Shown: one piece after another, positions 3,001-48,904 of the stretch
Layout: each line of letters begins with the position of its first letter
How positions within the stretch are numbered: position 1 is the first letter of the stretch
DNA from: a virus
Taxonomy: Duplodnaviria; Caudoviricetes
DNA: 57,125 nucleotides
Direction: 5' to 3' (one strand)
IMG/VR virus record: IMGVR_UViG_3300033076_000756
Span: 1 to 57,125 of that record
Made by a program: the position numbers and the translations under genes
The notes under the pieces: model-generated
The model's database searches: none
The model's input: the letters and a program-made list of their open reading frames with translations, nothing else
Told to the model about the DNA's origin: nothing

Positions 3001-6000
3001 GTCTGAGAAGCTTCCAATTGTGAGAAGCTGCGCATGTAAGTCTCAATCTTGGTAGTGTCAGTAGTAGTACTGCCGTCCTCTGCTTTTACCTGCTGTGTTT
3101 TGCTGTACGTAGTACGGTTAAGAAACGTCATCAGGTTGAGGATGTACATGGAGCGAGTGTCAATGTTTTTGAACGAGCTACCTTCTTTAAAGGTCTTGTT
3201 CACTGACTGTGCCACTCCACCAAACATGGCCATGTTAAAGTTTTCAAGGAAAAGCTCCACTGCGCGTGAACGCTTGGTGTCTTTGCCATTAATGATATCT
3301 CCTAACATGCCATTATCAGCAAGGAAGTTTTTGAGTTGGGACTCATAGTATGGATCCTGGCTCATAGTCTCCACTAATCCTTTACCACGTAGCTGTTGTG
3401 CTACAGTAAAGGCAGGAGTGTATTTTACGTAGCGGTAAATAGGTTTGCCTTCTGCGTTACGCGCTGTACTAGGAAGTTCTGTTGGATCATACTTTACAAT
3501 GTATGTAGCAGCTTTACCCAGGATAGCATTGAAGCGGTTGACAGATTCATCTCTGGTGTTTTTGTCATCCAGCATCTGCGCAAATTTGTTCTGCGTCATA
3601 TCAGAAGCAATTGCGCGGGTCATGATGTTTTCAAGATCCTTAAACCAGTCACGCTCCAGGTATTTCTTTTCCTGAACAAATTTCTCATGTGCCTGATAAT
3701 GTGCACGGATATCTCCCTGGATGTCTGCGTCTTTCAAGTTCTCTACTTCATCAATAGCAAGAATACTCATTCTTACCAGTGACTTTGGAACAGAGATCCC
3801 CACATCTTTCAAAGCAGCATGCATTTGTTCAGTAAGTTTTACCAAACGTGCCTCTTGTGAATCAATGTCAGAAAGAATATGTGTGTCAGTAGTGATCGTT
3901 TTTGTAAGCTCAAGCAGCTTGTTTACGCTTTCCTTATAGGCTGCGTATTTATCCGGTGCACTATTCTTAGCTCTGGCAGTGATGATACTGTTGATGATAT
4001 CCTTTTTCTTTTTGGAGATATCCTCATACATGATCTTGTCCTTGATGGAGAATCCTTTGGTGGTAAAATCAGTAAGGTTTCTTTCTTCATCAATGACCTC
4101 AATGGAGCTATTGACATTGATCATTACATAGTCAATCTCAGTACCATGCAATACATCTACTAACATGTTGTATAACTGCATGTTACGCTGAGGATTGCCT
4201 TGCGCATCAAATGCTACCTTGTCAGAAAGAGAATCATATACAGCTTGCAGGTCCAAACCTGCATCTCTGAATCCATCTTCTAACATGTTCTTGGCCTGAA
4301 TGCGGATGTTGTCCACTATGTTTTCAGGTTCAATCTCACTGGAGATCTTTAGGAGCTGACCAAAGATGGCGTCCCCGTTGATCATGCGTGGGAACTTAAA
4401 TTTCTTGTCTTTAGAGCTTAGCTCATCTACACTTTGGTCATAGCGTACCAGTGCCAGAAACTCACGGATCTGGCGTGGCAAAGAATCAAGACGGTTATGC
4501 TCATTAAGACCAGCGTCAAAGTCTTGCTCAGGTGTTTCATCTTTAAGTTCTGCATCCTGGTCTGTAGTCTCTTCACCATTCATTGCCTTTTCCAGTTCTT
4601 CTTTGTTTACTGAGCGGGCAGGGTTACCTTCAATGATAGAAGACACAGAATCAAGGCGTTGCTTGACAAGTTTCTTAAGTGTCTCATAAGACACCTTTCC
4701 ATCCACGTTGTCTTGCACTTCACCGGTACCTGCATTTTTAACAGTGGTAGCTGTAGTCTTTGCATCATAGGCATCATCTCCAGTTTCGTTGATGTCATAC
4801 AAAGCACCACCTCTGAAGCGGTCACCAAGCATGAAACGATAGTTCTTGATAAGATCTCCGTACTGTGCCATGATCTGGTCTTTCTTCTCAGGGTTCTGAG
4901 AAACCAGTCTATCCATGTTGTATTCTGTATCCAGGATAAGCTTTGTGATCCTGTCAAATCTCTCATCAAACTTTTCGCGGGTGTTGTTATCCTTAAGCAA
5001 ATAGTAAGTCACGAGGTTTACCAGCTGGTTTTGCTCCTCTACACCAAGTAATGACATGGCAGCTTGGGCTTTACCGGCTGGACCATTGATGATACGCGGA
5101 ATACCTGGGATCAGCTCATAGGCTACTTTACCGTCATAAAGACCTGTCTGCACAATAGCAGAACTATAGCGTCCTGAGTTGATATCTCCATATACTGTTT
5201 CAATAAGGTCTTTGTTTGCTCTGAAGAAATCAAGGATCTTTTTAAGCATCTGCATGAACTGTGCAATCAGGCCTTTTGGCTTGGAGCCTTTGTTCATGTA
5301 GTTCTGGAACCCATCTGCCAGGATCTCTTCTGCTTGCAGACGTGCAGCTTCTTCACGGTTGTAAAGCATACCACGCTGGCGGGCAAACTCTTTGAGCGAT
5401 GCTTCTGTAAATTTACCAGCATGTGTTTTGTTTTTTCTTACAGCGTCAATCAGCTGGTCACGCAATTCTGCGGACATCAGGTGACGGAACACACCGTGAA
5501 AAGCTTCGTGGTAGATCACACCTTTGCTCTTAATGGCTTCATTCAGGTAGATCACACGGTCTTTGAATGCACCTAGTACAGTACCATCAATCTGTGAAAG
5601 GTTAACAATATCACTGAGGTTCTCAGTATCAAGGCCAAACTGAGGAAGGTTTTGCTTAAGCCATTCAGCTTGCTGCAAACGCTCCTCCCCTGTTTCTGTT
5701 TCTACTGCACCATCTGCAATAGAGAATACAATATCCAGTGTTTCAATGTCATCACTAGGATCTGCCTTTAAGTTTTGTGCTACCGCCTTAGGTGCCTGCT
5801 CTTCCACAGGTGCCACGGTTTTAACTGTAGCTGCTATAGCAACAGAAGGACTTGCAGTCTTAGCAATAATGCTGAGACGCTTTTGTCCCTGGTTGAGTAC
5901 TTTGTAATTAGCCAGGTTAGTACGGCTGCGCTCTTTAGCATCCATGCCATTCTTTGGCTGGTATTGAGGACTGTAGCTGATCTTAGGGATAAGCGTACCA

Positions 6001-15660: not shown

Positions 15661-18600
15661 TTAGATTTCTTCCCAAGGAAGTTCAAATTCTCCACCGTAT
15701 GCCTGGCCAGGAAGAGTAGATCCTGTGGCAAAAGCATTTGCGTAAGATGTTCTCCAGTCAGGGGTAGCTGTACTTTTGTTCATCATTGTTTCAGTCATCT
15801 TGGTAGCATACTTGCGTGCTTCCTCTTCACCTCTTACAGGAAGAGCTTCATCGTAGTATTGTTTCCAAGCTGCATTTACCTGGTCTGTGGTATAGCCACC
15901 GGCTGTTGATCCTTTCTGACCTGTTACAGGATTGACATACACATCAGGTCCAAATATTTCTCTGTTAGACATACCTGGTGTTACGCTCACATCACCCATT
16001 ATTGGATCAACATATACTTCAGGGAATAGTACCTGTTCCATCTGCTTCTTGCGGAACCAGTTAGTAGTACCATTGTTAAATGCTGCAATCTGACGCCATT
16101 TCTTTTTGTTCAGCGCATTATCAATCTGCTGATTGAGTGTCGCGTTATCCTCAACATATTTAACACGTCCAGCCTCATTAGTGCCAATCTCCTGGTTCAT
16201 GATCTGAGCGTTTTTGTCATAGGCGTTATTTACAATACCAATGTTGGCATTTTCATACTGACCAAGAATGTTTGCAGAGTGACCAAGTGAATCACCGCTA
16301 GATGCAAGTGTAGCAGCAAGTCCAACGTTACCATCAACTGTGTTTTCAATTTGCTGATTTTGACGGGCATCTTGCTCTTGAATGCTTGCAATCTGGCGTG
16401 TAGGATCTAATAGATCATAACCTGGTGTCTGAAGATCTACGCTACCTTGTGTAGCACCATATCTGTTAACCTGATCTGTAGAAGCTCCAACGTAGTTTAC
16501 AATATCTTGTAACCACCATGGGCCTGCAGGTTTTTTAGCTGGGTTTGGTGTACCACCCGGTTGAGGGTTTATAGCACAGATCTTTTCAGCAGATCCTTGG
16601 TCAGCAAACGCAGATGATACACTCTTTCCTGTTGGTGGAACCGGTTGTTCACCTTCATTGTATGTTACAGATTGTACACTCTTTGTACCATCCTCATTTT
16701 CAACACAATAGTATGCCACTAAAGGTTTTGGTGTATCCAAGGTAATCTCAGTGTCCTTTTTTGGATCACCCATTTCAAAGAAACGAGGAACTGAATAAGT
16801 CACCTGACCAAACTTGCTATCACGCTTGTAAGGGGTATCTTCTTTTCCATTCAAAGGTTGGAAGTATGGAACTCCAAACTCTTTCATGGACTTTTCATTT
16901 ACCTTATCTTGGAACCATGCTGCAGCTTTATCACCTGATTCGCGACTAGCGCGGAGATCTTGCTGGTATTTAGCAAATCCTCCAGGATATTCTTTTTCAA
17001 TCCAGTCACCATGACGGTCTTGGAAGTCTTTCCATTCTTCAGGTGAAAGGTCGTTGTTAGAGCGTGCCTGTGCATTACCAGATGAAAGGTATATACCAGT
17101 ACCTTTTACATTAGGCTGACGACCAAATGATCCAAAGTTAGTATTGGTGTATCTTACGTTAGGATTCTGCGCAAGGATCTGATTTATGTTCTGAGAACCA
17201 TATTGCTCAAACTTGTTACCATCTGTACGCGGTGCTCTTTCTATAATGTTACCAGCCTCATCCTTGACAATCTTTTCATTACCCTTGTAATAAAGAGTTA
17301 CAGGTTTACCCTTATACATATCCTTGCGAACAAAGATCTCTTGGTTAGGGTCAATGCGCTGGTTAGTGCTTTGCTGCATTTGTTTTTGATCACCCACTTT
17401 TGAAGTAAGGCCATCACCTGGTCCATCACCAGGACCAACAGCAGGTTCGTCTACTTCTCCTGCAAGCAAATATTCAGGGATGTACCCACCCAAAGCAAAA
17501 GAACTCATTAATGCATTTGTATCATTATATCCTCCTTGCTTTGGAGCAGTAGTAGTTGTAGATTTTTTTACCGGAGCTGTGTTTGCAGTCTTTGTAGTAG
17601 TTGTTTGAGTAGGTGTAGAACCTGGCAGTTGAATGTCAAAACCGTAGTGCTTGTTCAAACGATCAATACTGGTTTGGTTAGTAACCGCATACCAGTTGCC
17701 ATTGTCTTCTTTAAATGCCCAGTACTTGGTACCATTTTTATCTTTGGCAGGGCGGTACTGAAAGTCACGTCCTTTAAGAGTGTAGTCTCTGTCACCAATT
17801 GCAGTGAGCTTTCCTCCAGGTGCTACAGCAGCACCGGCCTTAGCTCCAATGTTGGCAGCAGGCTTGATCTCTTCAACCATATCATTGCCCCACTCTGAAT
17901 TAGAACTGGATGCTTTGGCTGGTTGGCCAATATTGGTAACTGATGCCAGATCTCTGTTTATATCATTCATCAAAGTGCCCACCATGATGTACTCAGTTTT
18001 ACCTGTCTTTACATTTTTGGCGGCAACCATACTTGTTTCAGGCCCATGCGTACCTGGGATATGTTGAGGATCAGTCACTACAAATTCCCCCTTCATAGTT
18101 TTTACAGAGTCTCCTACATTTAAAGTTAAAGGCAGTCCATTTGCCAACTTCTTTGTAGTTGTTATACCAGGAATCTTTCCACCTTTGTTTGTAGAAAAAT
18201 TGTATTCTCTGTTATAGTCACCATTCCACCAAGAATTGTCGTTAGCACCTGTACGATTAACGCTTGTTTTGTTGCGCAGGTCTTTAAACTCATCATAGGT
18301 CAGGTAAAACGTTTTACCGTTTGCATCTTCAAAATATGCACCACCTGGATCACTAACCCAGTTAGGAGTTATATAATCAGTCCAAGAATCCTCAACCAGC
18401 TTTTTCAATTTTACTGGTTTACCGTTTACATAGTAAGTATCACCTATTTTAGGTAGCTCACCACCACCTGGATATTTACTCATGCGGCCACCGTATTTTG
18501 CTTCTGGTTGTGCAGGTGCCTCTTGTTCAGGTCCACCTTGCATAGCCATAGCAGCTGATTCAGCAAGAGCTGGAATACCATCAGGAAATCCTTTCATACT

Positions 18601-19116
18601 TTCTTGCACCAAGGCAAGTTTGGATAACATTTCTGTATTGGTCTTGAGCATCTCAGCAGCAGTACGTTTTTTCAAAGGGTCAGCATTCTCATCTTTAAGA
18701 ACCTGGATGTACTCATTGATCTGGTACTTCTTGGCAATCTCAGCCGGTGTGTATCCACCTTTTCTGTTACCCATACCAAATACCTTTGAGAGTAGCTCTT
18801 TGTCTTTGATGCGTAGTTTCTTTGTATCTGAGAAGATGAATGAACCTTCAGGAAGATTGACAGGCATACCTCCTTTAGAATGGCGTTTGCCTACAAAGCT
18901 CATGTGCTCCAAGAAGCCATCACCATTGATATCACCAACCACGGTTTCCCCGCCTTCTACTTCCACATTGGCATCCTTGCGGTCAATTGCCGTCATGGTA
19001 TTCTTTACCTCTGTATTGGCGTCACCAGGACCTACATTGTAGATCATGTTGTTAACCAAAGAGAAGTCTCTCTGGTCTCCCTTCTGAGGTTGTCTTTTTA
19101 TCCTGATTTTATGCAT
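15661..19116 (-). CDS. Virion structural/cargo protein (1151 aa), crAss-like
   Basis: The N-terminal ANVEVEGGETV...GKRHSKGG...PEGSFIFSD motif is typical of a crAss-like virion protein encoded after the tail stabilisation gene. It has a low-complexity middle and xxxGG motifs. Confidence 0.65.
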   Translation of the reverse strand: MHKIRIKRQPQKGDQRDFSLVNNMIYNVGPGDANTEVKNTMTAIDRKDANVEVEGGETVVGDINGDGFLEHMSFVGKRHSKGGMPVNLPEGSFIFSDTKKLRIKDKELLSKVFGMGNRKGGYTPAEIAKKYQINEYIQVLKDENADPLKKRTAAEMLKTNTEMLSKLALVQESMKGFPDGIPALAESAAMAMQGGPEQEAPAQPEAKYGGRMSKYPGGGELPKIGDTYYVNGKPVKLKKLVEDSWTDYITPNWVSDPGGAYFEDANGKTFYLTYDEFKDLRNKTSVNRTGANDNSWWNGDYNREYNFSTNKGGKIPGITTTKKLANGLPLTLNVGDSVKTMKGEFVVTDPQHIPGTHGPETSMVAAKNVKTGKTEYIMVGTLMNDINRDLASVTNIGQPAKASSSNSEWGNDMVEEIKPAANIGAKAGAAVAPGGKLTAIGDRDYTLKGRDFQYRPAKDKNGTKYWAFKEDNGNWYAVTNQTSIDRLNKHYGFDIQLPGSTPTQTTTTKTANTAPVKKSTTTTAPKQGGYNDTNALMSSFALGGYIPEYLLAGEVDEPAVGPGDGPGDGLTSKVGDQKQMQQSTNQRIDPNQEIFVRKDMYKGKPVTLYYKGNEKIVKDEAGNIIERAPRTDGNKFEQYGSQNINQILAQNPNVRYTNTNFGSFGRQPNVKGTGIYLSSGNAQARSNNDLSPEEWKDFQDRHGDWIEKEYPGGFAKYQQDLRASRESGDKAAAWFQDKVNEKSMKEFGVPYFQPLNGKEDTPYKRDSKFGQVTYSVPRFFEMGDPKKDTEITLDTPKPLVAYYCVENEDGTKSVQSVTYNEGEQPVPPTGKSVSSAFADQGSAEKICAINPQPGGTPNPAKKPAGPWWLQDIVNYVGASTDQVNRYGATQGSVDLQTPGYDLLDPTRQIASIQEQDARQNQQIENTVDGNVGLAATLASSGDSLGHSANILGQYENANIGIVNNAYDKNAQIMNQEIGTNEAGRVKYVEDNATLNQQIDNALNKKKWRQIAAFNNGTTNWFRKKQMEQVLFPEVYVDPIMGDVSVTPGMSNREIFGPDVYVNPVTGQKGSTAGGYTTDQVNAAWKQYYDEALPVRGEEEARKYATKMTETMMNKSTATPDWRTSYANAFATGSTLPGQAYGGEFELPWEEI

Positions 19117-19219: not shown

Positions 19220-22200
19220 TTAGTCAAGGAATTCTATCTCCCCGCCCATAGCCAGGATCATCTTTAACTCCTTGTCTGATACGTAGTATTCACCACCTTC
19301 TGCAAACTGACCACCGTACTTAGCTCCAGACATTCTGGTGCCAAAATCCTGGACAGGTGTGTTAGCTACCAAGCCAAAGTTGGAAGCAGGTCCAGCGTTG
19401 AGTGTGTAGTTACCAAACGGGTTGGTAGGGTTGTATGATTTGTAACGAGCGTCACTGTTACCAGTACGTCTCATCATTTGCTCATATTCTTTCTGGCGGT
19501 GCTCTTCACCCAGTACTGAGTTAAGCATGCCAAATCCTGCAAGTGCATTATTGGCAGCAAGCATTCCTACACTATCACCACGTTCTGTGAACTTGAATAA
19601 CTGGTTTTCCTGGAAAGGATCTCCTTGAACTGTAGTTTGAGCAGGTGTTGGTGTAACCGTAGGCGGAACTGTATTTCTTGGACCAGCAGTGTTTACCGGT
19701 GCAGCAGCAGCTTGTCCTGTCTCTGCACGCCACATTTCCATCAGTTTAGCCTGGTTGGCTGCATTAGCCATTACATCCGGGCGCTGTGCATTTTTGATAA
19801 ACCATTCTCTGAAGTCACCGCCTTCGTCTGCTCTAGGAAGTTCACCTCCAAAAGCAAAGCCAGCATCAAGATAGCCAGGCCCAAATACATCTTTGTCTTT
19901 CCACTGAGCTTCCATGCCAGCAAGTCCAGAACCACTGGTTGGAGAAAGAGTAGATGTAGGCATTTTTTGAGCAAGCATAGCTGCTCTACGAGCTGCCTGA
20001 TCGCGCTTGTCTAATATGTCTGCTGTATTGCCGTATTCTCCTGTGTTGGTATTAGCAAGCTTGCTGTCTGTTTTATCACCAGCAAATAGCTTTTCATAAC
20101 CTAAAATTGCCCCAGAAAGACCAGATGCCAAACCTGCAGCTGCTTTTACTTTTCCAAGCAAGCCTTTGTTAGGTAATGCCCATGCCATCATTCTTGGATC
20201 TCCCAAGGTGTTAGCTGCAGCAAGTCCGCGGTTCCAGGCATTGTTTTCCAGGTTTGCAACAGTATGTTGAGTAGTCTGATCAACTACTGTATCACCTTCC
20301 ATAAATGGTCCACCTTCTGCCCAGGTACCAAAGCGCTTGTGCCAGTATAGTGGGCTGAATGGATCTCTAGCCTTAGCTGAGTCTCTACCACCCATACGAT
20401 CCCAGAAACGGTCTCTGCGCTTATTGTTATGGTGCTGAGTATAATCTTTCATGCCTTTGTAGCCACCATGTACAATCTTGTACTGGTCACCTTTCTTGGC
20501 AAGCACCATCCATTTTTTACCAGGACGTGTAGATTTTCTCTTAGCCCCTACTCTGGTAAAGCCTTGTTTCTTATAACGTGCAGGAATACCTCCACCGTTC
20601 TTGAACTCAGGCATTTCACCGCCTAGCTCTTTAGCAAAGTTCTTGGCAAAGTTTGCTTTCTTTACCATTGCTGGGGAGAACTCCTCTTTATTCTTAAGGA
20701 TGTAGGTAGCAGCTTCCTGTACACTCATGCCCATGCGCGTAGCCTGTGCTTTAAATGTACCTTTCTTAGCAGGATCCAGTTTGATAGACCCTCCTGTTTT
20801 ATAGTCATTCCCGTCAGGTTCATCACCCTGCATAGGAGAAACAAGCTCATCTATTTCTTCAGCAGACATTGGAGTGTCTTCTTCTTCTGTCTCATCGTCA
20901 TCCTGCAAACGGTTCATGGCTTCCTGTACAAGTTGTACTGCAGTTTCCTGTGGAACGCCCTCACCCATCATTTCTTTGACAACAGACTCTGGATCTTCAC
21001 CATTCATGATCATGGTAGCAACTTCATTTAATGCTGCTTCTATCCCACTTTGTTGCTGATTTTGACCCATTGTGTTGGGATCTTCCAACATTTGACCACC
21101 TTCAGCCATCTGGCCACCACATTCCATGCAACCACCATATTTTTTCTGTGCTGCAGGACGTTTTGCTCCATATACAGGTTCAGATAAACCAGCTGCCTTT
21201 AATCCAGCAACAAACTGATCATGACCATAATGAGTTCCTGTACTATATCCTTCTTCAATTAAGCGGTGTGCATCACGCACATCCTGAGGATTGTTCCAGT
21301 CTACATTAATACAGTCCAGACAAAGGTTAAGACTGCCATCAGGCAAAGTCATATCAGGATCTCCTTTCCATGCTTCTGGATTATTTTGCAAGAACTTGTA
21401 CTGTTCCATTGCATAGTCGTACATACTTTTCATTGGAACAGGTTCACCTGCTTTCTTTATGGGTTCTGTTGGACCACCCATGGCAAATTCTCCATCTTCT
21501 GGAACTAGTTCTGCTTGATATCTTGATTCAATACTTGGATAATGAAAGTAGCGTCTTTTACCTTTTTTAATAAGGTCTCCACCATGTCCAGGTTTTCTGA
21601 AACGTGGCAGTCTGTATCCAACACTGTTGCCATCCCAATCAATATACCTTTCTGTTCTACCTACCCATTCAGCACCAGGTCCATCAGGTTCACCTTCTGT
21701 ATAACCTTCTGATTCTTCATAACCCAACTCTGGTTGTTGAGTTGCAGTTGTAGTTGTAATTAAACCTGGTCTCAGTGTTTGCATTGGCTGCATTACTTCT
21801 TTATTTACAGGTTGAGAATTTTTTTGTACTGGTGCTGCTACAGCAGCTGGCGCTGTGTAACTAATAGGTGCTGTAGAAACAGATGCTACATCATTAGTAA
21901 TTGGAGGGCAGTTACCTGACGGACAAGTCCAGCTCTCATTATATTTTTGCTTGAACTGATCAGCATATAACTTAGCATTTGGATTTCCCGCTTTAGCTGC
22001 TTGTTTAACTTTGTCTGCTTCAGCATATTTTGCAGCAAGATATTTTTGTTGCTCAGGAGTCAATGCAGGATTAACAGGATTGGAAGGATCAACAATAGGC
22101 CCACCTTCTGGCATCATGTAACCACCATACTCAGCTTTCTTCCAGCCTCCACCGTGTTCTTTGTACCATTTAGCTGCAAAGCCATTGGCATAGGCTGAAG

Positions 22201-22795
22201 GATAGACATCATATTTGGCTTTGGCTGCAGCTTTTGCTCTGCTCCATAGTTCAGGGTTGGTAGGCACATTACCGCCTTCTTTCATGTAGTCCATATCATT
22301 TGTCATTTCACCTCCTTCATCACGGCGTCTGTGTTGGTAAGGAATGCGCTCGCTAGAGGTTTTTGTTCTTTTAAATTTTTCTTTTTCTGAATCAGATAAC
22401 TCTGATGCAGTTTTAGGCGTGTCTTCAGATACACGTTTGCTGGGTCTGCATGCAGGATAGCTTCTGCGTTTCTCACCTTTCTGGCGTCCGCATTCTTTTC
22501 CTGTTTTTACGTCAACCCATTTCTCAGCAAACCATCTATCCAATCCACCATGCTGACCACCTTTGGCCATCTCAACCTGGGCTCTTTGTAAAAAGTCCTG
22601 AAGATTATAGCTTACCCCTTCTGCTTTAAAATCTGCTACCATGTTTTCAGCAATGGCTTTTCTGTTAGCAGGATCTTCTACCTGGGTCAGGATGTCTGCA
22701 ATACCTTCTACCATTTCACGGTCGTTCTCACCGCCTTCACGCATTTCCTGCTGGCGGCCAATGAACTTCATTAATATCTCATTCCTATTATACAT
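19220..22795 (-). CDS. Modular virion-associated protein (1191 aa) with ~19 Phi-x-x-G-G motifs separating small basic domains
   Basis: ORF track translation shows MREGG, MAKGG, MKEGG, MPEGG, FAMGG, MAEGG, YKTGG, FKNGG, WAEGG, FAFGG, FAEGG and others. Its start overlaps the upstream stop (TAATG). Confidence 0.75.
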   Translation of the reverse strand: MYNRNEILMKFIGRQQEMREGGENDREMVEGIADILTQVEDPANRKAIAENMVADFKAEGVSYNLQDFLQRAQVEMAKGGQHGGLDRWFAEKWVDVKTGKECGRQKGEKRRSYPACRPSKRVSEDTPKTASELSDSEKEKFKRTKTSSERIPYQHRRRDEGGEMTNDMDYMKEGGNVPTNPELWSRAKAAAKAKYDVYPSAYANGFAAKWYKEHGGGWKKAEYGGYMMPEGGPIVDPSNPVNPALTPEQQKYLAAKYAEADKVKQAAKAGNPNAKLYADQFKQKYNESWTCPSGNCPPITNDVASVSTAPISYTAPAAVAAPVQKNSQPVNKEVMQPMQTLRPGLITTTTATQQPELGYEESEGYTEGEPDGPGAEWVGRTERYIDWDGNSVGYRLPRFRKPGHGGDLIKKGKRRYFHYPSIESRYQAELVPEDGEFAMGGPTEPIKKAGEPVPMKSMYDYAMEQYKFLQNNPEAWKGDPDMTLPDGSLNLCLDCINVDWNNPQDVRDAHRLIEEGYSTGTHYGHDQFVAGLKAAGLSEPVYGAKRPAAQKKYGGCMECGGQMAEGGQMLEDPNTMGQNQQQSGIEAALNEVATMIMNGEDPESVVKEMMGEGVPQETAVQLVQEAMNRLQDDDETEEEDTPMSAEEIDELVSPMQGDEPDGNDYKTGGSIKLDPAKKGTFKAQATRMGMSVQEAATYILKNKEEFSPAMVKKANFAKNFAKELGGEMPEFKNGGGIPARYKKQGFTRVGAKRKSTRPGKKWMVLAKKGDQYKIVHGGYKGMKDYTQHHNNKRRDRFWDRMGGRDSAKARDPFSPLYWHKRFGTWAEGGPFMEGDTVVDQTTQHTVANLENNAWNRGLAAANTLGDPRMMAWALPNKGLLGKVKAAAGLASGLSGAILGYEKLFAGDKTDSKLANTNTGEYGNTADILDKRDQAARRAAMLAQKMPTSTLSPTSGSGLAGMEAQWKDKDVFGPGYLDAGFAFGGELPRADEGGDFREWFIKNAQRPDVMANAANQAKLMEMWRAETGQAAAAPVNTAGPRNTVPPTVTPTPAQTTVQGDPFQENQLFKFTERGDSVGMLAANNALAGFGMLNSVLGEEHRQKEYEQMMRRTGNSDARYKSYNPTNPFGNYTLNAGPASNFGLVANTPVQDFGTRMSGAKYGGQFAEGGEYYVSDKELKMILAMGGEIEFLD

Positions 22796-25700
22796 TACCT
22801 AGGGCTATTGAGTTGTTTTGTGTTTGTAAGCTTGAGGATCATTTTATAAGGACCGCTCACGTTTCTGCGTAGGATTACATAATTTCCGTAGTGACGGAAC
22901 TTCTTACGCTGTAGTGGTGACTTATAATAGTTCAGGTTTGCAGGATTGAGAATACGCTCATATCCAGAACATTTGGTATTCCAGATAGGAAGCTCTACCC
23001 CACTGAATTCTCCGCGGTCATTGGTTACATCCCAGAACTGGTTAAAGCGGAACTTGTTTTCCTCTTTACTGTACAGGATGTCAATACCATTGGCAGATAC
23101 CTGTGGATAGTTTACACCATCAAGCGGTGAATTCTTTCCTTTCAGGTTAAGTTTCAGTAAACCAGATACCTGCTCAGAGTTGTACACAATAGCGCGGTCA
23201 AAGTTCTGATCCAATGCGTGGTGGAAATCCTTACCATCATTGAAGTACTTGTAAACATCCATGTAATACTCAACATTTCTGAGTGTGGTAACCTGGTTTG
23301 GTGTTACTACAGGATATTCAACCTCCCATGCATAATCCTGGTCATAGTAGTTACAAAAGCTATCCCAACGGTCATTGTGTTTCCAGAAGGAATCACCGTT
23401 TACTGTAAGGAAATGCTGGTTACTAGGTATCATAAGAGATGGTCTCCAGTCATGGAAACTTACCCATACTTTAGTCTTAGGATCGTAACTAATGGTCCAT
23501 CCGCAAGGTTGGAAACATGTAGGATCATCATATTCACAAGGACATTTACCACTAGAGGTTTGTCCAGTACCTGGTACTGTTTTGGTACCGCAGTTATAGT
23601 AAGGTACTCCGGAAGGATCATCAAAGTAAAGATCCTCACGTAAAGGAATGTAGTCTTTCTTGGTAAAGTATACTAGCTCATACTGTGGATCATAGATAGC
23701 CTGAACTCCAATTCCTGCAACAGGGTTGTCATAAAGTGGATAATCAGGATAGATCTCAAGCATCTTGGACGGCAAGTTCTCATTAAACCAGAACTTCATA
23801 CCATTGCGAGAGATCTCTTCAATACTTCCTGCAAAGTGCATCACCTTACCGTTTTTCTGAGAAACCCAGAATAAACCAAACGGTGTGTTTACTGCAGCTC
23901 TTGAAGAAATACTTGCTCCATAGTTGATAGCGTCATCCGCATTGACAAGACCTTGCATGTTTCCAGCAAAGAGTCCACCATCACCAATGGTAACTTTTAC
24001 ACCACCTTTGGTTTGCAGCTGGTCAACACCTACAAACTGCACTGGCTCAGCATCTTCAAAAAGAACCACTGCACCAGTAGCATTGAGCGCTTTGATGTTG
24101 TTTATTCTTCCTCCGAAATCTTTATAGTTAAGAGGTAAGAAGTTTCTCCAGTTGTCTCTTTTGAGTCCTTCCTGCTGCTGGAGAGAATATATTGCACGCT
24201 TTGGATAGTACTCAAAGCACGTGGAATAAACTGCAGGGTTGTAGTCACGTGGGAGAATGACTCCCCAAGTCCCGAAATTGTTGAATAACTTGGATGCACT
24301 AAGCGATAAGTCGTACTCATGGTATATTGGTTTTTTGATGAGGTCAGAGCGGAACATGGTTTCCTCATCATTGAATGAGTTACCATATGGATCCCAGAAC
24401 TTCTGGTATTCTTCTTCTCCATAGTCACGGTAAGCCATGTTCAGTTCACTCTCAGTAAAGAAGTCACGCACCCCGTTGTGGAACAGGTATGCATACGCTT
24501 GTCTTACTGTAAGGAATCCTGATATAGCAGCATTACGGTCAAAACGGTGATAGCTGCTTGGAGAATTAAAGTCAATGATTGGTGAGTTGAGCAGACCGTT
24601 AGGGAACAACGAAAGGTTGAAATCCTCAAAGTCAAATGGCTCATAGTTTACCCAGTAACGTGGAGCAGGACCATTCACATAGTTACGGTAGTCGTAGTCT
24701 GTAGTGTCTGGCATATCATACATCCAGGTGTTGAAGAACATGTAAGGGTTCTTCTCTGTGTAACGGTTGATATACACATCCCCGCCAAAAATCACGTCTG
24801 TCTGGTGCAATGAAAAAATATCAGGCTTGGTGTTAAACACACAAGAACTGGTAGGAAGCTGTGTAATAGAAGTGAGCTGGCCGTACTGGTTTTCAAAATC
24901 TACCTTAATGGCACCATAGTAAGCCACTGTATTTGTTTTTACAGGGTTTCTTGTAGGATCTTTGTAGGTAATAGCTCCTGCACTTACTGCATCTTTTACA
25001 CGCACCTTGGTGTTATCCGTTCCTGCTACAGGATTAGGAAGGTTTGCTGTAAGTTTTACAGCTACATATTTGTTTCTGTAAAGGTTATTGATCTTGTAGG
25101 TAGCATCCAGGTCATGAACACCCGCACCAATGTACTTGGCACCAGATCCTTCCACTTTTCTTGTAAAGGATTTAGGTAGACCTGAAGGAACAGCTGTATT
25201 GGCTACAGGTGAAAAGCTTCCGTAAAACCCATGAGAGTTGTACTGGATCATGTACTGACGTGGCTTATTCACCTTGCGCAAAGTCTCAAGGACTTGGTTA
25301 GTTCCCTGGCCCAGGTAAAATGCAGAAGACGCAATTAATGCTGCAGCACCGGCTCCTGTACTTACAAGAGATCCTAATGGGTTGGTCCATCCTGCTGAAA
25401 TCAGGTTAGGGATGATCGTAGCTGGTGTAGACTCAATATCCTGACCTTGCTCTGTACCTGTGCCAAATGGTGCAAGCCATGCTCGTCCTACCGTGGTTGT
25501 TTTACCAACAGCAGCTAAAATGGCAAGTCCTGCACCCACTATTGCAGCAATGGTAAAGGCGCCATCTGTAAGGATCACATGTTTAGGGTGCTTGTAAGGA
25601 AATTGGAAGCGTCCTTCTACAGTACCACGCTCTTCTGTATAGATCTTGATATGGTTACCGCCTAGGTAAGGCTTCACAAAGTTTGTCTCTACTGAGTGGA

Positions 25701-27486
25701 AAGAGAATATGTTCTGCTTGTACTTGTCAAGTTTGGACATATTCTCAATTTGATTCACGCTACCAGAACCATCATCCAGCACTGTGTAGTCATCTGTCAA
25801 GAATGAGTCTGGACGAAGGTCATTATATGGGTAGTTCTGGAACAAGCCTTTTCTGCCAGTGTTCCCATCCATGGCATATTCCACCATGTTATTGAACAAC
25901 CCTTTAGCTACAATAGAGCGGTTGCCCTCACGTGAACCTCTAAGTATCTCATAACCAACGATATCCAGTATTGGAGCACCATTGCCATCCACTGGATGCT
26001 TGATATTTGAAAACTGAACTCCCAGCACTATGATCTTGTCACCACCCTGGTTGTGGATGTGTGTAGTCTCATTAGATGGCATTTTGTGGTGGCGGATAGG
26101 TTTGCCGCAAAGTGGTCCCCATACCTCCACGTTGTCATCAGGATAGCGCTCAGTGGATTCCCAGTAGCCCATCTTCCCTTTATTGATGATCACACCGCCA
26201 TCAGCTGTTATGCCGGTAGCTGTATACTTGGTGGACGTATCATAGACCTGCCAGGCTTTATTCTGCGCAGGATTGATCACATCAGGGGTAGAAACAGTGG
26301 TCACGTCTGTAGGCATGGCCACACGCCCTGGAATATGGAAAGAAGCGCTTCTGGCGCCAGTCTTGTATACCCAGCGGATAAAGAAAGGATACACCTCATC
26401 ACGCATGTAACCAGTATGGTTACCCCCGCCAAAGTAGTAGTCGCGTGGATATTCTACAGCCACCCATTCTGTAAGTATCTGATTTGCAAGAACTTGATAG
26501 TTAAAGTATGGCTGTGAAGTGACGCCTGTGCGTATGAGATAGCGGTTGATGTCAAACATCTTCTCACTTTTCTCATACACTACAGACTTGAGTGGAATCT
26601 GTGTAAGGTCAACCGTAGGCAGTGACTGCTGGATCAAGTCTACGTGAACCAGTTTCTGACGGGTTGAGTAATTACCAATCTTTTTGGCAATAGTTTGCTG
26701 GTTGATCACAGATATGATCACCAGCTCATATTCATTGAAGTCCTGGTCAAGATTGTCAATCAGTACATCAATGGATCCTCCAATACCAACATGATCCCAA
26801 AGACCCTGGGCAGCTGAAGGAATAGAATAATCTGTAAGACGTATAGCATTTTCTGTGTAAGCTACAACAGCAAGGTAGCTACCATTATTCAACTGTCCAG
26901 TACCTGTGGACTTCTGTACATGTACACATGGTTGTTTTACCAGTGGATGTAAACGTAAAGCGTCACAGTCAAGCTCATCAGAGTATTCAGGGGTGTAACA
27001 GTCCGGATCATCATTAGCATCCCCTATAACCTTGTAAGGAACTCTGTCAAGGTTCATCACACGGTCAGGGTTCAGATTGTCCTGCCAGTATACAGAATAG
27101 GTACAGTCATAGTTCTTTTTAGCTACACCTGTGATAAGGTTAGTCTTTTTGAAACCAAGACATGGATCATTTACTACAACAGTGTAGTTACATTTAGACT
27201 CATCCAGGATTCCAATTTCACTGTAAAGGTCATTGGTAGAGAATACTACCCATTCAGTGCCATATTTGTGCACCAGGCCAATGACAGTATAAGGAGCAGA
27301 TGCACAGTATCTGTTAGACGGCTCATTTCCAATAGAGCCAGTCTCACCAGTATGCGCGTTGTTTATCGCATTGATAGCGTTTGTCCAAAGACCATCTGAT
27401 ATGAAAATGTCAGTATAGTCTTTGACCATCCCCTTGTTGAAGGTGTTGGTCTTGCCGCTGCTGGTATTTTGTACATTCTCGCTCAT
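22795..27486 (-). CDS. Tail stabilisation / muzzle protein (crAss-like, P22 gp10-related; 1563 aa)
   Basis: N-terminal NTFNKGMVKD...NAIN motif, beta-rich aromatic composition, C-terminal WVSFHDW and FRFNQFWD. The position after the ring-protein genes matches crAss-like phages. Confidence 0.75.
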   Translation of the reverse strand: MSENVQNTSSGKTNTFNKGMVKDYTDIFISDGLWTNAINAINNAHTGETGSIGNEPSNRYCASAPYTVIGLVHKYGTEWVVFSTNDLYSEIGILDESKCNYTVVVNDPCLGFKKTNLITGVAKKNYDCTYSVYWQDNLNPDRVMNLDRVPYKVIGDANDDPDCYTPEYSDELDCDALRLHPLVKQPCVHVQKSTGTGQLNNGSYLAVVAYTENAIRLTDYSIPSAAQGLWDHVGIGGSIDVLIDNLDQDFNEYELVIISVINQQTIAKKIGNYSTRQKLVHVDLIQQSLPTVDLTQIPLKSVVYEKSEKMFDINRYLIRTGVTSQPYFNYQVLANQILTEWVAVEYPRDYYFGGGNHTGYMRDEVYPFFIRWVYKTGARSASFHIPGRVAMPTDVTTVSTPDVINPAQNKAWQVYDTSTKYTATGITADGGVIINKGKMGYWESTERYPDDNVEVWGPLCGKPIRHHKMPSNETTHIHNQGGDKIIVLGVQFSNIKHPVDGNGAPILDIVGYEILRGSREGNRSIVAKGLFNNMVEYAMDGNTGRKGLFQNYPYNDLRPDSFLTDDYTVLDDGSGSVNQIENMSKLDKYKQNIFSFHSVETNFVKPYLGGNHIKIYTEERGTVEGRFQFPYKHPKHVILTDGAFTIAAIVGAGLAILAAVGKTTTVGRAWLAPFGTGTEQGQDIESTPATIIPNLISAGWTNPLGSLVSTGAGAAALIASSAFYLGQGTNQVLETLRKVNKPRQYMIQYNSHGFYGSFSPVANTAVPSGLPKSFTRKVEGSGAKYIGAGVHDLDATYKINNLYRNKYVAVKLTANLPNPVAGTDNTKVRVKDAVSAGAITYKDPTRNPVKTNTVAYYGAIKVDFENQYGQLTSITQLPTSSCVFNTKPDIFSLHQTDVIFGGDVYINRYTEKNPYMFFNTWMYDMPDTTDYDYRNYVNGPAPRYWVNYEPFDFEDFNLSLFPNGLLNSPIIDFNSPSSYHRFDRNAAISGFLTVRQAYAYLFHNGVRDFFTESELNMAYRDYGEEEYQKFWDPYGNSFNDEETMFRSDLIKKPIYHEYDLSLSASKLFNNFGTWGVILPRDYNPAVYSTCFEYYPKRAIYSLQQQEGLKRDNWRNFLPLNYKDFGGRINNIKALNATGAVVLFEDAEPVQFVGVDQLQTKGGVKVTIGDGGLFAGNMQGLVNADDAINYGASISSRAAVNTPFGLFWVSQKNGKVMHFAGSIEEISRNGMKFWFNENLPSKMLEIYPDYPLYDNPVAGIGVQAIYDPQYELVYFTKKDYIPLREDLYFDDPSGVPYYNCGTKTVPGTGQTSSGKCPCEYDDPTCFQPCGWTISYDPKTKVWVSFHDWRPSLMIPSNQHFLTVNGDSFWKHNDRWDSFCNYYDQDYAWEVEYPVVTPNQVTTLRNVEYYMDVYKYFNDGKDFHHALDQNFDRAIVYNSEQVSGLLKLNLKGKNSPLDGVNYPQVSANGIDILYSKEENKFRFNQFWDVTNDRGEFSGVELPIWNTKCSGYERILNPANLNYYKSPLQRKKFRHYGNYVILRRNVSGPYKMILKLTNTKQLNSPR

Positions 27487-27869
27487 TAGTGGTGTAGCTG
27501 TATAGTAAACTCCTCTTTACCAAGGATCTTGTATATTTCTTGTGACAGATAGCCAATCAACCAGGCTCTGCTTTCATCGTCATTGATATCTATGTCATGG
27601 GTCATATTGGTTCCCAGGTGAAAGATCTCGTGCGCTATGAGATTGTGCGAGAGCTTGTCTTTTTGCAGTACAATATTGTACTGAAACTTGTCATCATGAC
27701 CAAGCTGAAAAACGCAACCATCACATCCGGTTACGTCTATCCTTATCTTCTTCTTCTCTAAGTACTCCTGCATGTAATCCATGTGTTCTACTACATAGAC
27801 AACCACACTGGTGTTATAGATAGGAATAGGTAGTGTCTTTTTGAAAATCTTTGCACATTCCTTCATCAA
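27486..27869 (-). CDS. Small zincin-like (HExxH) protein
   Basis: IAHEIFHL followed by DESRAWLIGY (third ligand Glu); coupled to both neighbours by overlapping start/stop codons. Confidence 0.6.
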   Translation of the reverse strand: MMKECAKIFKKTLPIPIYNTSVVVYVVEHMDYMQEYLEKKKIRIDVTGCDGCVFQLGHDDKFQYNIVLQKDKLSHNLIAHEIFHLGTNMTHDIDINDDESRAWLIGYLSQEIYKILGKEEFTIQLHH

Positions 27870-28963
27870 CTCTTAAACATATTGTAATACAAATGGTACT
27901 GTGCCTTTCTGTTCATTTCCCAAACCTTCTTCATCTCGTGGAAGTCTGGTGTGTTAATGAAAGAGAGCGCGTTGTTTCTGGCAGCACGGATGCGTTGTTC
28001 CGTCAGCTGCATTTTGTTTGCAGTATTCTCATCATTGATGAACAGGTTTTCAAATATGCGTTGTTTTAACGCATACTCATAATACTCATTCACCATAGGA
28101 TGATCCATTACAAGTAAGTTTCCATCATCGTCTTCCATCAAAGACTGATAGTTGAGAAAAACAACACCCTCATCAAAGTTTGTGACAAGGAAGCCGTTCT
28201 TGATGACAGCAGTGTGCCAGTCCTGGCTGTTCAAGTTGATACAGTCAGCAGAGACACTTTTAGATTTTTGAATGCGCATGGCCACCAGGTGTTTGTACGT
28301 GTGACGTCTTCCTGGTGTATTGTAGCTTACCACATGCTTGCCATCTGCATCCACAGAAAGCTCTGCAGAGTTTACACCGGTAAACAATGGGCGTGAAGCC
28401 ATTAGTATGATCTTGCAGTCTACAATAGGAACTGCAGCTTCAGAAATAATTTGGACCAGTGAGTTTGTAGGAGTAACAATGTTGAAAGAAAGGATCGTGT
28501 TATCTGGTCCAATGATCTGAATCAAAATGTTCTGAGAATCCAGGTTATGCTGAATATTGTTCACACCTGGGTTAATTGTCTGAATTACAGTCTGTTGACG
28601 TACCACATTACCCTGGCCAAACAAAGCTGCCTGCTGCCCAATTGAGGCTCCTTCAAGCAAACCTTCTGTATAGGTCTTTGTAGCGTGGTGATGATGGTGG
28701 TGGTCATGTACGTTATGACCCTCACAAAGCAGTGCAAAGTTGAGCACGTAAAAATCTTCAGGTAATCTACCTTTTCCTTTGTGGATCTCAATGGCTTTAG
28801 AGCGGCTAGGATTGACTTTTAAGCCAAGATCATAGTTCACCTTCATAGCCACCTTGATCAGCTGCTGTGGGTCAATCATTCCCTCCAGGTCAAACGTGCG
28901 CAGATCAATCTTGACACTGTCAAGCAAATCATCAAAAGTTCTGTATTGGATTTCAGTGTACAT
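27866..28963 (-). CDS. Tail ring/tubular protein with inserted domain and poly-His tract
   Basis: GKGRLPEDF and YQSLMEDDDGNLLV...YYEYALK motifs resemble crAss-like ring proteins; it lies between another ring gene and the muzzle gene. Confidence 0.6.
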   Translation of the reverse strand: MYTEIQYRTFDDLLDSVKIDLRTFDLEGMIDPQQLIKVAMKVNYDLGLKVNPSRSKAIEIHKGKGRLPEDFYVLNFALLCEGHNVHDHHHHHHATKTYTEGLLEGASIGQQAALFGQGNVVRQQTVIQTINPGVNNIQHNLDSQNILIQIIGPDNTILSFNIVTPTNSLVQIISEAAVPIVDCKIILMASRPLFTGVNSAELSVDADGKHVVSYNTPGRRHTYKHLVAMRIQKSKSVSADCINLNSQDWHTAVIKNGFLVTNFDEGVVFLNYQSLMEDDDGNLLVMDHPMVNEYYEYALKQRIFENLFINDENTANKMQLTEQRIRAARNNALSFINTPDFHEMKKVWEMNRKAQYHLYYNMFKS

Positions 28964-28965
28964 GA

Positions 28966-29637
28966 TTAGCGGGCTGTTTGTCTGTTATCGTGCTGTGCGT
29001 CTTGTGGGATCTGTAGCATAATGCCCAGGTCACGCATAACCAGTTGTTCAATTTCTGGGAACATGTACTCAGGTACATTGAAAGACTTATCCTGGATATA
29101 CTGGCAGTTGTCCGCAGGGTCACAGTTGTAATGACTGATGTCTCCTTCAAACACACCCTCTAAACGGACAGCATCCCACTCCATGTTAGGGAAGTAGAGA
29201 TATCCATCCAGGTACCAGTAGTATTTTTTCTTATTGTACTTGAATGTCTTTTGCTTGCTCATTTGCTCAAAAGACGTAGGGTACGTAGGAGTAAGCTCCT
29301 CAGAAAGGTCAATGGAAGTCACTGCACGTAACAGTGGGCCCCAGTAACCATCAATCATTTCAGGAAGTTTGTCTTTGGTGCGCTTGAAATAGCAGCCGGT
29401 ATCAATACCATGGCACTGTGCCTGGGCACGGTCCACCTCAATCAACTCAACAAAGTTGAGCGTTTGCCATACACTGTTAAAGCGAATGATGCGGTTGAGG
29501 TTGTCTTGTCTGCGCATGAGAAGCTTAGCGTGCTTCATCAGCTGGGAGTACAAAAAACGGTCAGTCAGGAAGGCGTCTTGCTTCACTGACTTGATCTGGT
29601 TGCGTACCCTTGAAATAACTTCTCCTATTGTAATCAT
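28966..29637 (-). CDS. Tail ring/tubular protein (P22 gp4-like)
   Basis: 223 aa with YYWYLDGYLYF...VRLEGVFE and C-terminal IPQD..HD pattern; crAss-like tail module order. Confidence 0.6.
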   Translation of the reverse strand: MITIGEVISRVRNQIKSVKQDAFLTDRFLYSQLMKHAKLLMRRQDNLNRIIRFNSVWQTLNFVELIEVDRAQAQCHGIDTGCYFKRTKDKLPEMIDGYWGPLLRAVTSIDLSEELTPTYPTSFEQMSKQKTFKYNKKKYYWYLDGYLYFPNMEWDAVRLEGVFEGDISHYNCDPADNCQYIQDKSFNVPEYMFPEIEQLVMRDLGIMLQIPQDAQHDNRQTAR

Positions 29638-48714: not shown

Positions 48715-48904
48715 TTCTTCCAAATGTTATATTCTTCTTTACTCTAATGTCCTTGTGAGTGAACTGCCACATCTCACCACTATCATTTAAAATGACAGTA
48801 TATATCGTGTCAGTCTCATGACCGTAGTCTGTCACCAGCCAGATGATTCCAGGCCCGTTAGGTGTTTCCACCTCAACTCTGTTTTGTGGCTCAAATACTG
48901 TCAT
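48698..48904 (-). CDS. Hypothetical protein (68 aa)
   Basis: ORF overlapping its neighbours; VETPNGPG...DYG...GEMW small beta-protein pattern. Confidence 0.55.
   Translation of the reverse strand: MTVFEPQNRVEVETPNGPGIIWLVTDYGHETDTIYTVILNDSGEMWQFTHKDIRVKKNITFGRNGKTI

Follow-up and report, generated by a model that had tools for sequence, protein, structure and literature searches.

What is the role of the Gly-Gly motifs that punctuate P0001, a protein of 1191 amino acids (aa) encoded by a virus of the Caudoviricetes (Duplodnaviria)? Its gene lies on a stretch of 57,125 nucleotides, positions 1 to 57,125 of the IMG/VR virus record IMGVR_UViG_3300033076_000756. This stretch, estimated to be 45% complete, is referred to as the window in this text. 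It is a fragment of a crAss-like phage from a lineage of about 120 kb, and its major capsid protein belongs to the crassvirus family PF23898. An initial annotation of the window had proposed that the open reading frame (ORF) is an expandable cassette which captures small proteins between GG linkers, packages them in the virion and releases them by proteolysis, or else that the motif is a repeated capsid-binding peptide. We found that P0001 is an expandable cassette array: breakpoints are located at the GG junctions, modules are permuted there, and the same modules occur in split and fused forms. On balance, we lean towards regarding P0001 as a hypervariable, modular internal-virion (cargo/ejection) protein in which the GG elements serve as hinge or insulator junctions. 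Cleavage at the junctions is possible, but it is not needed to explain the data.

19220..22795 (-): P0001, whole ORF, modular cargo-slot protein (ATG start, 1191 aa, no internal stops)

The Gly-Gly motif is enriched in P0001 and its relatives

P0001 contains 26 GG dipeptides, compared with 13.5±3.4 in 2000 composition-preserving shuffles of its sequence (maximum 25; an overlapping GGG was counted as two GG). The pattern [MFYW]xxGG occurs 12 times, versus 1.8±1.3 in 500 shuffles, and an aromatic residue or Met at position -3 or -1 before GG was found 17 times, versus 3.2±1.8, a value reached in 0 of 2000 shuffles. Motif counts were also run on 23 other ORFs of the window, none of which displayed a clear enrichment (the top counts were 2, with 1.4 and 0.7 expected). 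All 19 pentapeptides listed in the initial annotation are present in P0001 in the order given there, at residues 18, 76, 158, 171, 221, 228, 437, 551, 557, 563, 665, 722, 731, 825, 980, 989, 1158, 1164 and 1181. In the description of these motifs as Phi-x-x-Gly-Gly, the Phi position is not always hydrophobic (RDEGG, KELGG, ADEGG). In KKYGG, AEYGG and AKYGG, the aromatic residue is at -1 rather than -3. The GG at 215/216, 777 and 802 are conserved positions within modules, not junctions.

The GG motif is a trait of the whole protein family. An exhaustive search matched 4122 cluster representatives at E≤1e-3. The best 150 of these 4122 matches mostly concern single modules, at any position in proteins of 135–2662 aa, and few are near-collinear. 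In a set of 239 homologs (including P0001 as the query), the median GG density is 21.8 per 1000 aa. Among 2749 distinct GG contexts, the residue at -3 is M in 24%, Y in 18%, W in 6% and F in 6%, and the residue at +1 is E in 20%. The tandem pairs remarked upon earlier in P0001 also recur in the family: spacers of 4–7 aa make up 387 of 2843 distinct inter-GG segments versus 41 of 1014 shuffled ones, and Met, Tyr, Cys and Glu are frequent in these spacers.

Several simple readings of the motif were discarded. A Shine-Dalgarno-like or internal-start function of the EGG codons does not fit, with GGAGG at only 3 of 26 sites. The idea of a leader before every module fails as well: of 205 distinct N-termini, 21 have their first GG in the initial 12 aa, versus 22% expected. 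Helix capping (a C-cap role) explains few of the 19 motifs, since only about 5 of them come after the end of a predicted helix.

Modular organization of P0001

P0001 is located directly after a muzzle-like gene, as is cargo protein 1 (gp45) in the phage crAss001, and therefore fills the cargo-protein-1 slot. To compare the content of this slot, related loci were collected by an IMG/VR scan seeded with a 9-row Tlr6F alignment, which yielded 80 loci (82 analysed in total). Several of these are identical copies from different records (e.g. L007/L008), so that locus counts overstate independence. The slot census comprises 45 distinct slots, and the ORF caller used for it admits some small, doubtful ORFs. 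The parts of P0001 are listed below from the N-terminus to the C-terminus; pLDDT is the per-residue confidence of the AlphaFold2 (AF2) model, HSP a high-scoring segment pair of BLAST, and the bit scores are given with the Pfam gathering cut-offs.

22745..22795 (-): N-terminal signature peptide ..ILMKFI.., residues 1–17 (predicted helix 4–18)
22571..22729 (-): acidic helical module A, residues 23–75, between MREGG and MAKGG (helices 25–71)
22325..22558 (-): DUF5872 module, residues 80–157, basic, net charge +9 (PF19197, 72.6 bits versus cut-off 27.5 bits)
22271..22324 (-): double junction RDEGG...MKEGG, residues 158–175, the gene-split point in relatives
22130..22270 (-): helical module C, residues 176–222, NVPTNPELW... 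(pLDDT 80–91; phrog_27331)
21128..22099 (-): variable cassette block, residues 233–556, other cassettes in the closest relatives (confident domain 454–542, pLDDT about 90)
21095..21145 (-): triple junction KKYGG-CMECGG-QMAEGG, residues 551–567 (45 HSP starts in bins 551–570; pLDDT<50)
20804..21094 (-): strongly acidic helical module, residues 568–664, net charge -25 (from the predicted model and charge)
20624..20803 (-): module shared with cargo protein 1, residues 665–724, GG-IKLDPAKKGTF...KKANFAKNFAKEL (matches gp45 homologs)
20309..20596 (-): Tlr6F / DUF5754 module, residues 734–829, net charge +19 (PF19058, 36.0 bits versus cut-off 27.4 bits)
19325..20308 (-): conserved C-terminal core, residues 830–1157, the most widely kept collinear part
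19223..19324 (-): C-terminal tail AKYGG-QFAEGG-EYYVSDKELKMILAMGGEIEFLD, residues 1158–1191 (G1167, G1168, G1184 and E1188 conserved in at least 90%)

The AF2 model of P0001, built from a 59-row alignment, has a mean pLDDT of 58.9. Its confident, compact modules include residues 176–222, 245–290, 454–542, 584–632, 680–724 and 830–943, while the Tlr6F module (737–825) is moderate (mean pLDDT of 44–68 in blocks of 10 residues). Segments with pLDDT<50 make up 43% of the residues and contain 20 of the 26 GG. The earlier remark that the motifs fall at the borders of distinct segments agrees with these data, since 17 of the 19 motifs are in such low-confidence segments and the net charge of the modules swings from +19 to -25.

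The Pfam matches span residues 80–147 for DUF5872 and 753–801 for DUF5754 (Tlr6F). A stretch 66% identical to the DUF5872 module is found in Prochlorococcus phage P-SCSP2. The Tlr6F module is GG-capped on both sides (GG-IPxRY...W.EGG), and both caps are conserved. Module A appears elsewhere in the chain of relatives, at 776–838 in P0017 and after Tlr6F in P0222. The C-terminal core contains two Gly/Ala-rich, semi-hydrophobic helices (879–904 and 1076–1096), with a pLDDT of about 80 for residues 830–943. Both ends of the protein recur in related slots: the N-terminal signature peptide is also found on the first gene in 11 of the 45 distinct slots, and the C-terminal tail (..ILAMGGEIEFLD) in the last ORF of 34 of them. 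The GG pairs of the tail are invariant in the 12 tails compared.

A PDB sequence search with P0001 gave 0 matches, and Foldseek found none for the full model in the PDB at E≤1e-3. Foldseek against BFVD returned long, poor alignments and weak matches to 'Cargo protein 1 compact domain-containing' entries (E≥2.6e-3), which we did not count as evidence. A protein atlas comparison of residues 442–550 pointed to small viral hypothetical proteins with scores of 0.82–0.84, below the usable level.

Cassettes are exchanged at the junctions

Homologs whose domain boundaries miss the motifs would have refuted the proposal of the initial annotation, and this comparison did not refute it. In 493 BLAST HSPs of P0001 against the 238 stored homologs, 518 of the 773 internal ends (67%) are no more than 5 aa away from a GG, versus 17.8% expected with uniform placement. 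In P0003, which is 94–98% identical elsewhere, and in P0006, other cassettes replace residues of about 237–561, with breakpoints near MPEGG and at MECGG/MAEGG. P0007 is permuted, with block 315–441 preceding block 75–227. For most close relatives examined (e.g. P0005, P0007, P0009), the breakpoints are at or beside a GG in both proteins; some are located 5–10 residues past the GG, and the flank in the subject is without GG in P0003, P0006 and P0008. A collinear ortholog with 70% overall identity has kept the GG at 19 of 19 sites, one of them shifted by 1 residue, and its indels are placed right after GG. As had been anticipated for a comparison of orthologs, it is at the GG motifs that cassettes are gained or lost, change their order or become separate genes. 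The coincidence of the motifs with breakpoints, indels, a gene split and linker segments supports the notion of an expandable cargo cassette.

The gene split is seen in many relatives, among them the two-gene loci L003, L007, L009, L017 and L030, in which gene 1 ends with ..KEDGGQI and gene 2 starts with MEYMKNGGNTPTNP. The DUF5872 module closes gene 1 and the next module opens gene 2; the gene boundary therefore corresponds to the RDEGG...MKEGG junction (158–175), and in L030 the break lies between the two GG motifs. In relatives, gene 2 has module C as its N-terminus (MANKPNNPSLW..). P0001 itself combines an N-terminal peptide of the gene-1 type with a C-terminal tail of the last-gene type. 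That small proteins are captured between GG linkers, as proposed initially, is in line with the occurrence of the same modules as small free-standing phage proteins. The start of free-standing modules (MANKPNNPSLW, MAIPDRYK) corresponds to the residue right after GG in the fused forms, and free-standing Tlr6F (91–108 aa) starts with MxIPxRY and ends with ..GTW where the fused forms go on with xEGG.

The slot is highly variable in size. It contains 1 to 3 or more ORFs with 865–3626 aa in total among the 45 distinct slots. At loci with a muzzle homolog upstream, the single proteins that bear modules are 103 to 2181 aa long, and a single Tlr6F protein of 103–108 aa fills the slot in L074, L083 and L084. 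The number of motifs per slot protein varies from 0 to 16. Relatives carry extra domains: DUF3597, YkuD, SLT, LysM and topoisomerase I were detected by a scan, and SET and glucosaminidase come from a precomputed list. The payloads in relatives are envelope-acting or DNA-acting domains.

Some further arrangements were noticed at these loci. Many 'gene 1' proteins of the slot terminate in the short motif GG-x(0-3)-WL-x-(K/N)-Y (..GGQTNWLDNYND, ..GGWLSKYK; L007, L011, L031, L040, L045, L073, L076, L080 and others), and WLxKY also opens other slot proteins (MSWLKKY.., MGWLKKYQQGG..), which gives it the look of a portable terminal peptide. In L071, L072, L077 and L082, a DUF5872-like protein (112–114 aa) and Tlr6F (91–97 aa) are encoded by adjacent small genes in the same order as in the larger proteins. 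In L055 and L063, where a muzzle homolog was not detected, a multi-module protein with Tlr6F (1663 and 787 aa, respectively) directly follows the portal gene, where minor head or pilot proteins are usually encoded; phrog_220 is annotated as 'minor head protein and DNA pilot'.

Genomic neighbourhood

The order of genes on the minus strand is R2, R1, a 127-aa HExxH protein (p127), a muzzle-like protein of 1563 aa, P0001, and then proteins of 1151, 875, 1498 and >2826 aa. The following neighbours and landmarks were identified.

28966-29637 (-): tail ring protein R2 (Pfam PF25702)
27866-28963 (-): tail ring protein R1 (Pfam PF24228)
22795..27486 (-): muzzle-like large virion protein, 1563 aa, upstream neighbour (phrog_37948/15100, virion structural protein)
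15661..19116 (-): presumed cargo protein, 1151 aa, downstream neighbour (syntenic in 53 of 82 loci)
42855-45584: portal (PHROG match)
45602-47803: large terminase TerL (PHROG match)

The muzzle-like gene occupies the same position as crAss001 gp44 and the cr128_1 'stabilization protein', and the gene after it in both phages is gp45, cargo protein 1. A muzzle homolog was found in 65 of the 82 related loci, upstream of the module protein wherever the order was listed. The 1151-aa neighbour has no Pfam or PHROG family match. The ORF of >2826 aa (3-8480) is a vRNAP-associated cargo protein that aligns with crAss001 gp47 and gp50. The whole order R2-R1-(p127)-muzzle-P0001-c1151-c875-c1498-vRNAP parallels gp44-gp45-gp46-gp47 of crAss001.

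Two other genes of the window deserve mention. A DNA repair exonuclease-like gene (30286-31584 (-); phrog_704, E 5e-45) lies within the tail/virion block. A 230-aa protein (48891-49583 (-)) matches the arginine-tRNA-protein transferase C-terminal domain PF04377 (E 8e-10) plus a GNAT-like family; an aminoacyl-tRNA-dependent transferase fold beside the terminase gene is unusual.

Relation to crassvirus cargo protein 1

gp45 (PF25725, crAss_CARG1; PDB 7qog chain M and others) sits in the same slot as P0001, after the muzzle and before further cargo and vRNAP genes, and its homologs have one module of about 60 aa in common with P0001. Residues 623–722 of P0001 are 40% identical to the cr128_1 gp45 homolog (E 8e-19). 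The match to crAss001 gp45 itself is weak (E 4e-4), and hhalign gave a probability of 5% with E 0.008 for one module only. No homology between the C-terminal core and the C-terminal region of gp45 was found by BLAST, phmmer or hhalign.

The CARG1 domain is present in gp45 and in the cr128_1 homolog (E about 1e-66), but it was found neither in P0001 nor in the 1151-aa neighbour even at E≤10, and in 0 of 5 records (the window and 4 relatives that are 95–99% complete). gp45 has a predicted N-terminal transmembrane helix (PMC10172136, in the part of the text available). P0001 shows no clear transmembrane helix, its 19-aa Kyte-Doolittle maximum being 1.15 and located in the C-terminal core, not at the N-terminus. 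Without CARG1 and without such a helix, P0001 is a positional analogue of gp45 and not a demonstrated ortholog.

P0001 differs from gp45 in its much denser and more regular GG junctions and in its DUF5872 and Tlr6F modules. gp45 also displays module-wise homology with breakpoints near aromatic-GG sites, and the motif enrichment in gp45 and the cr128_1 homolog is weaker (6 versus 2.6±1.6 and 5 versus 1.6±1.2, respectively). As a separate observation, residues 102–155 of the cr128_1 gp45 homolog (L002:8494-11058) form a Gly-zipper with a near-threshold match to the class IIc bacteriocin family PF10439 (E 1.9e-5, 25 versus 27.1 bits), which hints at a membrane-inserting, peptide-like segment in the cargo protein 1 of a gut crassvirus.

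A proposed modular cargo protein with hinge-like junctions

In the reading we lean towards, P0001 consists of a conserved N-terminal peptide, a variable run of small autonomous modules and a conserved C-terminal core with its tail. The variable run comprises at least 10 modules of about 45–150 aa, including DUF5872 and Tlr6F/DUF5754. The [M/Y/F/W]-x-x-G-G elements may act as short, flexible hinges rich in Met, Tyr and Glu, often doubled, that insulate adjacent modules from each other. Cassettes have been inserted, deleted and permuted at these junctions in the course of evolution, and at one of them the gene has been split in two. From the gene position and the one module shared with gp45, we infer that P0001 is packaged and ejected: inside the particle, it would occupy the cargo zones of capsid and/or tail, and ahead of the DNA it would pass through portal and tail in extended form, one module after another. 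Its payload modules would then act in the envelope or the cytoplasm. In P0001, these are basic, probably nucleic-acid-binding modules; in relatives, they include SLT, YkuD, glucosaminidase, LysM, SET and topoisomerase I domains.

Several points weigh against this reading. Its placement of P0001 in the virion and in the ejected material depends on gene position and the shared module, and P0001 has neither the CARG1 domain nor a clear transmembrane helix. It is not obvious that a plain hinge would need the residue preference at -3, -1 and +1 or the doubling, and this preference suggests recognition by some factor; helix capping could account for few of the motifs (about 5 of 19). Moreover, the HSPs come from related subjects, so that their ends are not independent data, and alignment ends can be anchored by a conserved motif itself; low pLDDT (especially in 306–453) is no proof of disorder, because the AF2 alignment is shallow and partly mis-registered.

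Possible cleavage, docking or recombination

Two HExxH sequences in the virion and cargo genes could belong to a processing enzyme, as the initial annotation had pointed out.

27486..27869 (-): p127, small HExxH protein, 127 aa, candidate zincin (H80, E81, H84 and E99 invariant in 11 homologs)
5496..5510 (-): HEAFH motif, candidate co-packaged zincin, in the vRNAP-associated ORF 3-8480 (conserved with crAss001 gp47)

p127 is encoded between R1 and the muzzle gene and is modelled with a pLDDT of 90.7. As regards a zincin identity, the Pfam matches are below cut-off (DUF5700, E 0.01; M76, E 0.06), Foldseek found none in the PDB at E≤1e-3, and YbeY (1oz9) appeared at rank 46. We therefore kept it as a candidate. 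The HEAFH motif lies in a region with 27% identity to gp47 over 193 aa (E 1e-14), where YHEAFHGVF aligns with YHEAFHVVF at residue 2157. gp47 was detected in crAss001 virions (PMC10172136, text available in part).

With these candidates, P0001 may be a true polyprotein, cut at Phi-x-x-G-G in the procapsid, in the virion or after ejection by p127, by the HEAFH domain of the vRNAP-associated cargo or by an unrecognised protease, so that modules and short spacer peptides would result; we hold this to be rather unlikely. It would account for the preference beyond GG (M/Y/W/F at -3, E/Q at +1) across non-homologous modules and for the doubled sites that flank spacers of 4–7 aa. Modules work as separate polypeptides in relatives, with natural N-termini at the residue after GG, and the two HExxH candidates are conserved within the same virion/cargo block. 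Zincin (MPTase) domains have been proposed to autoprocess packaged polyvalent proteins (PMC5512222, partial text). The pieces of gp45 resolved in crAss001 (214–245 and 425–552) are each flanked by aromatic-GG motifs, near which the gp45 homologs break as well; gp45 has such sites around residues 205–210, 260–265, 329–333, 424–428 and 558–563. However, release by proteolysis, as proposed initially, is not supported: in 5 related records, of which 4 have a completeness of 95% or more, C48 (PF02902), C5 (PF00770), C39 and the HK97-type S78 were found in none (PF02902 and PF00770 searched at E≤1), and a scan of 36 long relatives of P0001 detected a peptidase domain in 0 of 36. Peptidase_C48, the family covered in the search of the window, was not found in this 45% complete sequence either. 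Of 32 loci with R1 and muzzle, p127 is present in 18 and missing from 14, which still carry 7–16 motifs. GG is not enriched near N-termini, as described above for the leader idea. The cryo-EM model of gp45 is continuous over residues 425–552, through the GG at 427, 434 and 447, and was read as one chain by its authors (PMC10172136, available part). Gel bands of crAss001 virions at 270 and >300 kDa (PMC6235969, available part) would fit unprocessed giant cargo proteins. More specifically, a virion-borne zincin, the HEAFH domain or p127, might cut the junctions in the particle or just after ejection and free lineage-specific small effectors including Tlr6F, which we consider unlikely. If this were true, zincin-cut cargo would be a bacteriophage counterpart of the core polyprotein maturation of adenovirus and African swine fever virus (ASFV), and gp45 would be present in the crAss001 virion as pieces, not as one chain threaded through the portal.

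Alternatively, the motifs may be repeated binding or 'sticker' peptides that dock on the portal, the ring proteins, the inner capsid, or each other and other cargo, and that would thereby enrich cargo in the procapsid and retain it in the cargo zones. The sequence preference, the multivalency, the invariant GG pairs of the C-terminal tail and the weaker enrichment in gp45 and its cr128_1 homolog are consistent with docking, as are the gp45 segments observed to bind ring proteins and portal in crAss001, which lie beside such motifs (PMC10172136, partial text). We nevertheless regard it as quite improbable: the motifs are in segments that AF2 leaves unstructured, no binding partner was identified, the spacers between motifs are highly variable in sequence, and a fixed set of binding sites fits poorly with a motif number that varies from 0 to 16 among slot proteins. 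When the portal (909 aa; alignment of 6 rows) and the C-terminal tail (80 aa; 12 rows) were submitted to complex prediction, the score of 0.00, obtained without controls, spoke neither for nor against binding. Finally, the motif might matter at the DNA level or be a neutral scar, with GAA-GGT-GGT-like microhomologies that drive illegitimate recombination and a peptide devoid of function. Cassettes are indeed swapped and permuted at the motifs between relatives of 72–98% identity, and GAA GGT GGT is common to several GG sites. Yet the 26 GG sites are encoded by varying codons (many combinations of GGT/GGA/GGC/GGG) and have no more than about 9 nt in common, which argues that selection acts on the protein and that the signal is not in the DNA. 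Together with the amino-acid conservation (19 of 19 sites at 70% overall identity) and the position-specific residue preferences, this makes such an origin highly improbable.

Implications

Crassviruses are among the most abundant phages, and to our knowledge what they inject besides DNA is largely unknown. This locus shows the cargo slot behind the muzzle gene to be a rapidly evolving array of cassettes that obeys a simple junction grammar, by which crAss-like phages would vary what enters bacteria. The grammar provides a rule to find and delimit cargo modules in metagenomes, and the array may serve as a natural scaffold with tolerated insertion points for cargo-delivery tests in laboratory phage-host pairs. 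Tlr6F/DUF5754 and DUF5872, widespread viral proteins of unknown function, now appear in a virion-cargo context, which suggests that they are particle-internal and probably nucleic-acid-binding. Should the junctions turn out to be cleaved, the published model of gp45 as a single chain would have to be reconsidered.

Comparison with known systems

The di-glycine cleavage consensus of the adenovirus protease, ASFV pS273R and Ulp1-like enzymes (clan CE) is (M/L/I)-x-G-G. Like P0001, the substrates of clan CE carry a GG preceded by a hydrophobic residue at the module borders of a virion-internal protein; the hydrophobic residue is two positions before GG in the clan CE site, whereas in P0001 it is three before (Phi-x-x-G-G) or directly before. 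In double-glycine leader systems, the partner is C39, a family found here in 0 of 5 related records.

T7 gp16 carries an SLT lytic transglycosylase, and relatives of P0001 carry SLT as well. The ejection proteins of podoviruses (T7 gp14-16, P22 gp7/16/20) are head-internal, expelled before the DNA and mosaically conserved (comparison in PMC10172136, partial text). They are not described as beads-on-a-string with a repeated junction motif, and neither the PDB sequence search nor Foldseek gave a sequence or fold match of P0001 to them.

Tlr6F is a conserved viral protein of unknown function (PMC4642659), of which a few peptides, below the significance threshold, were found in PgVV-14T particles (bioRxiv 2022.07.28.501842). 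Elsewhere, in polinton-like viruses, virophages, giant viruses and phages, Tlr6F and DUF5872 occur as free small proteins, whereas in P0001 they are internal, GG-capped modules of a 1191-aa protein in the cargo slot.

The polyvalent proteins of phages and conjugative elements, which are predicted to be packaged and injected, resemble P0001 in having many unrelated domains per chain, a location beside virion genes and extreme mosaicism (Iyer et al. 2017; PMC5512222, available part). They carry catalogued effector and LPD domains, whereas the modules of P0001 are mostly tiny and uncharacterised; its Pfam families are DUF5872 and DUF5754 only, and no effector, LPD or MPTase domains were found in it. 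An in-chain peptidase was found neither in P0001 nor in the 36 long relatives scanned, and the HEAFH motif is located in a different cargo ORF. The initial annotation had called such a delivery system uncharacterised in crAss-like phages. This is too strong, since crassvirus cargo proteins (PMC10172136) and phage polyvalent proteins (PMC5512222) have been described. A description of the GG junction grammar itself was not found in the literature on DUF5872/DUF5754, Tlr6F, crassvirus cargo and polyvalent proteins, as far as these texts were available. The words 'linker' and 'glycine' are missing from the accessible text of PMC5512222, which places the grammar outside the polyvalent class as described there. 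P0001 is a variant of the known cargo and polyvalent proteins.

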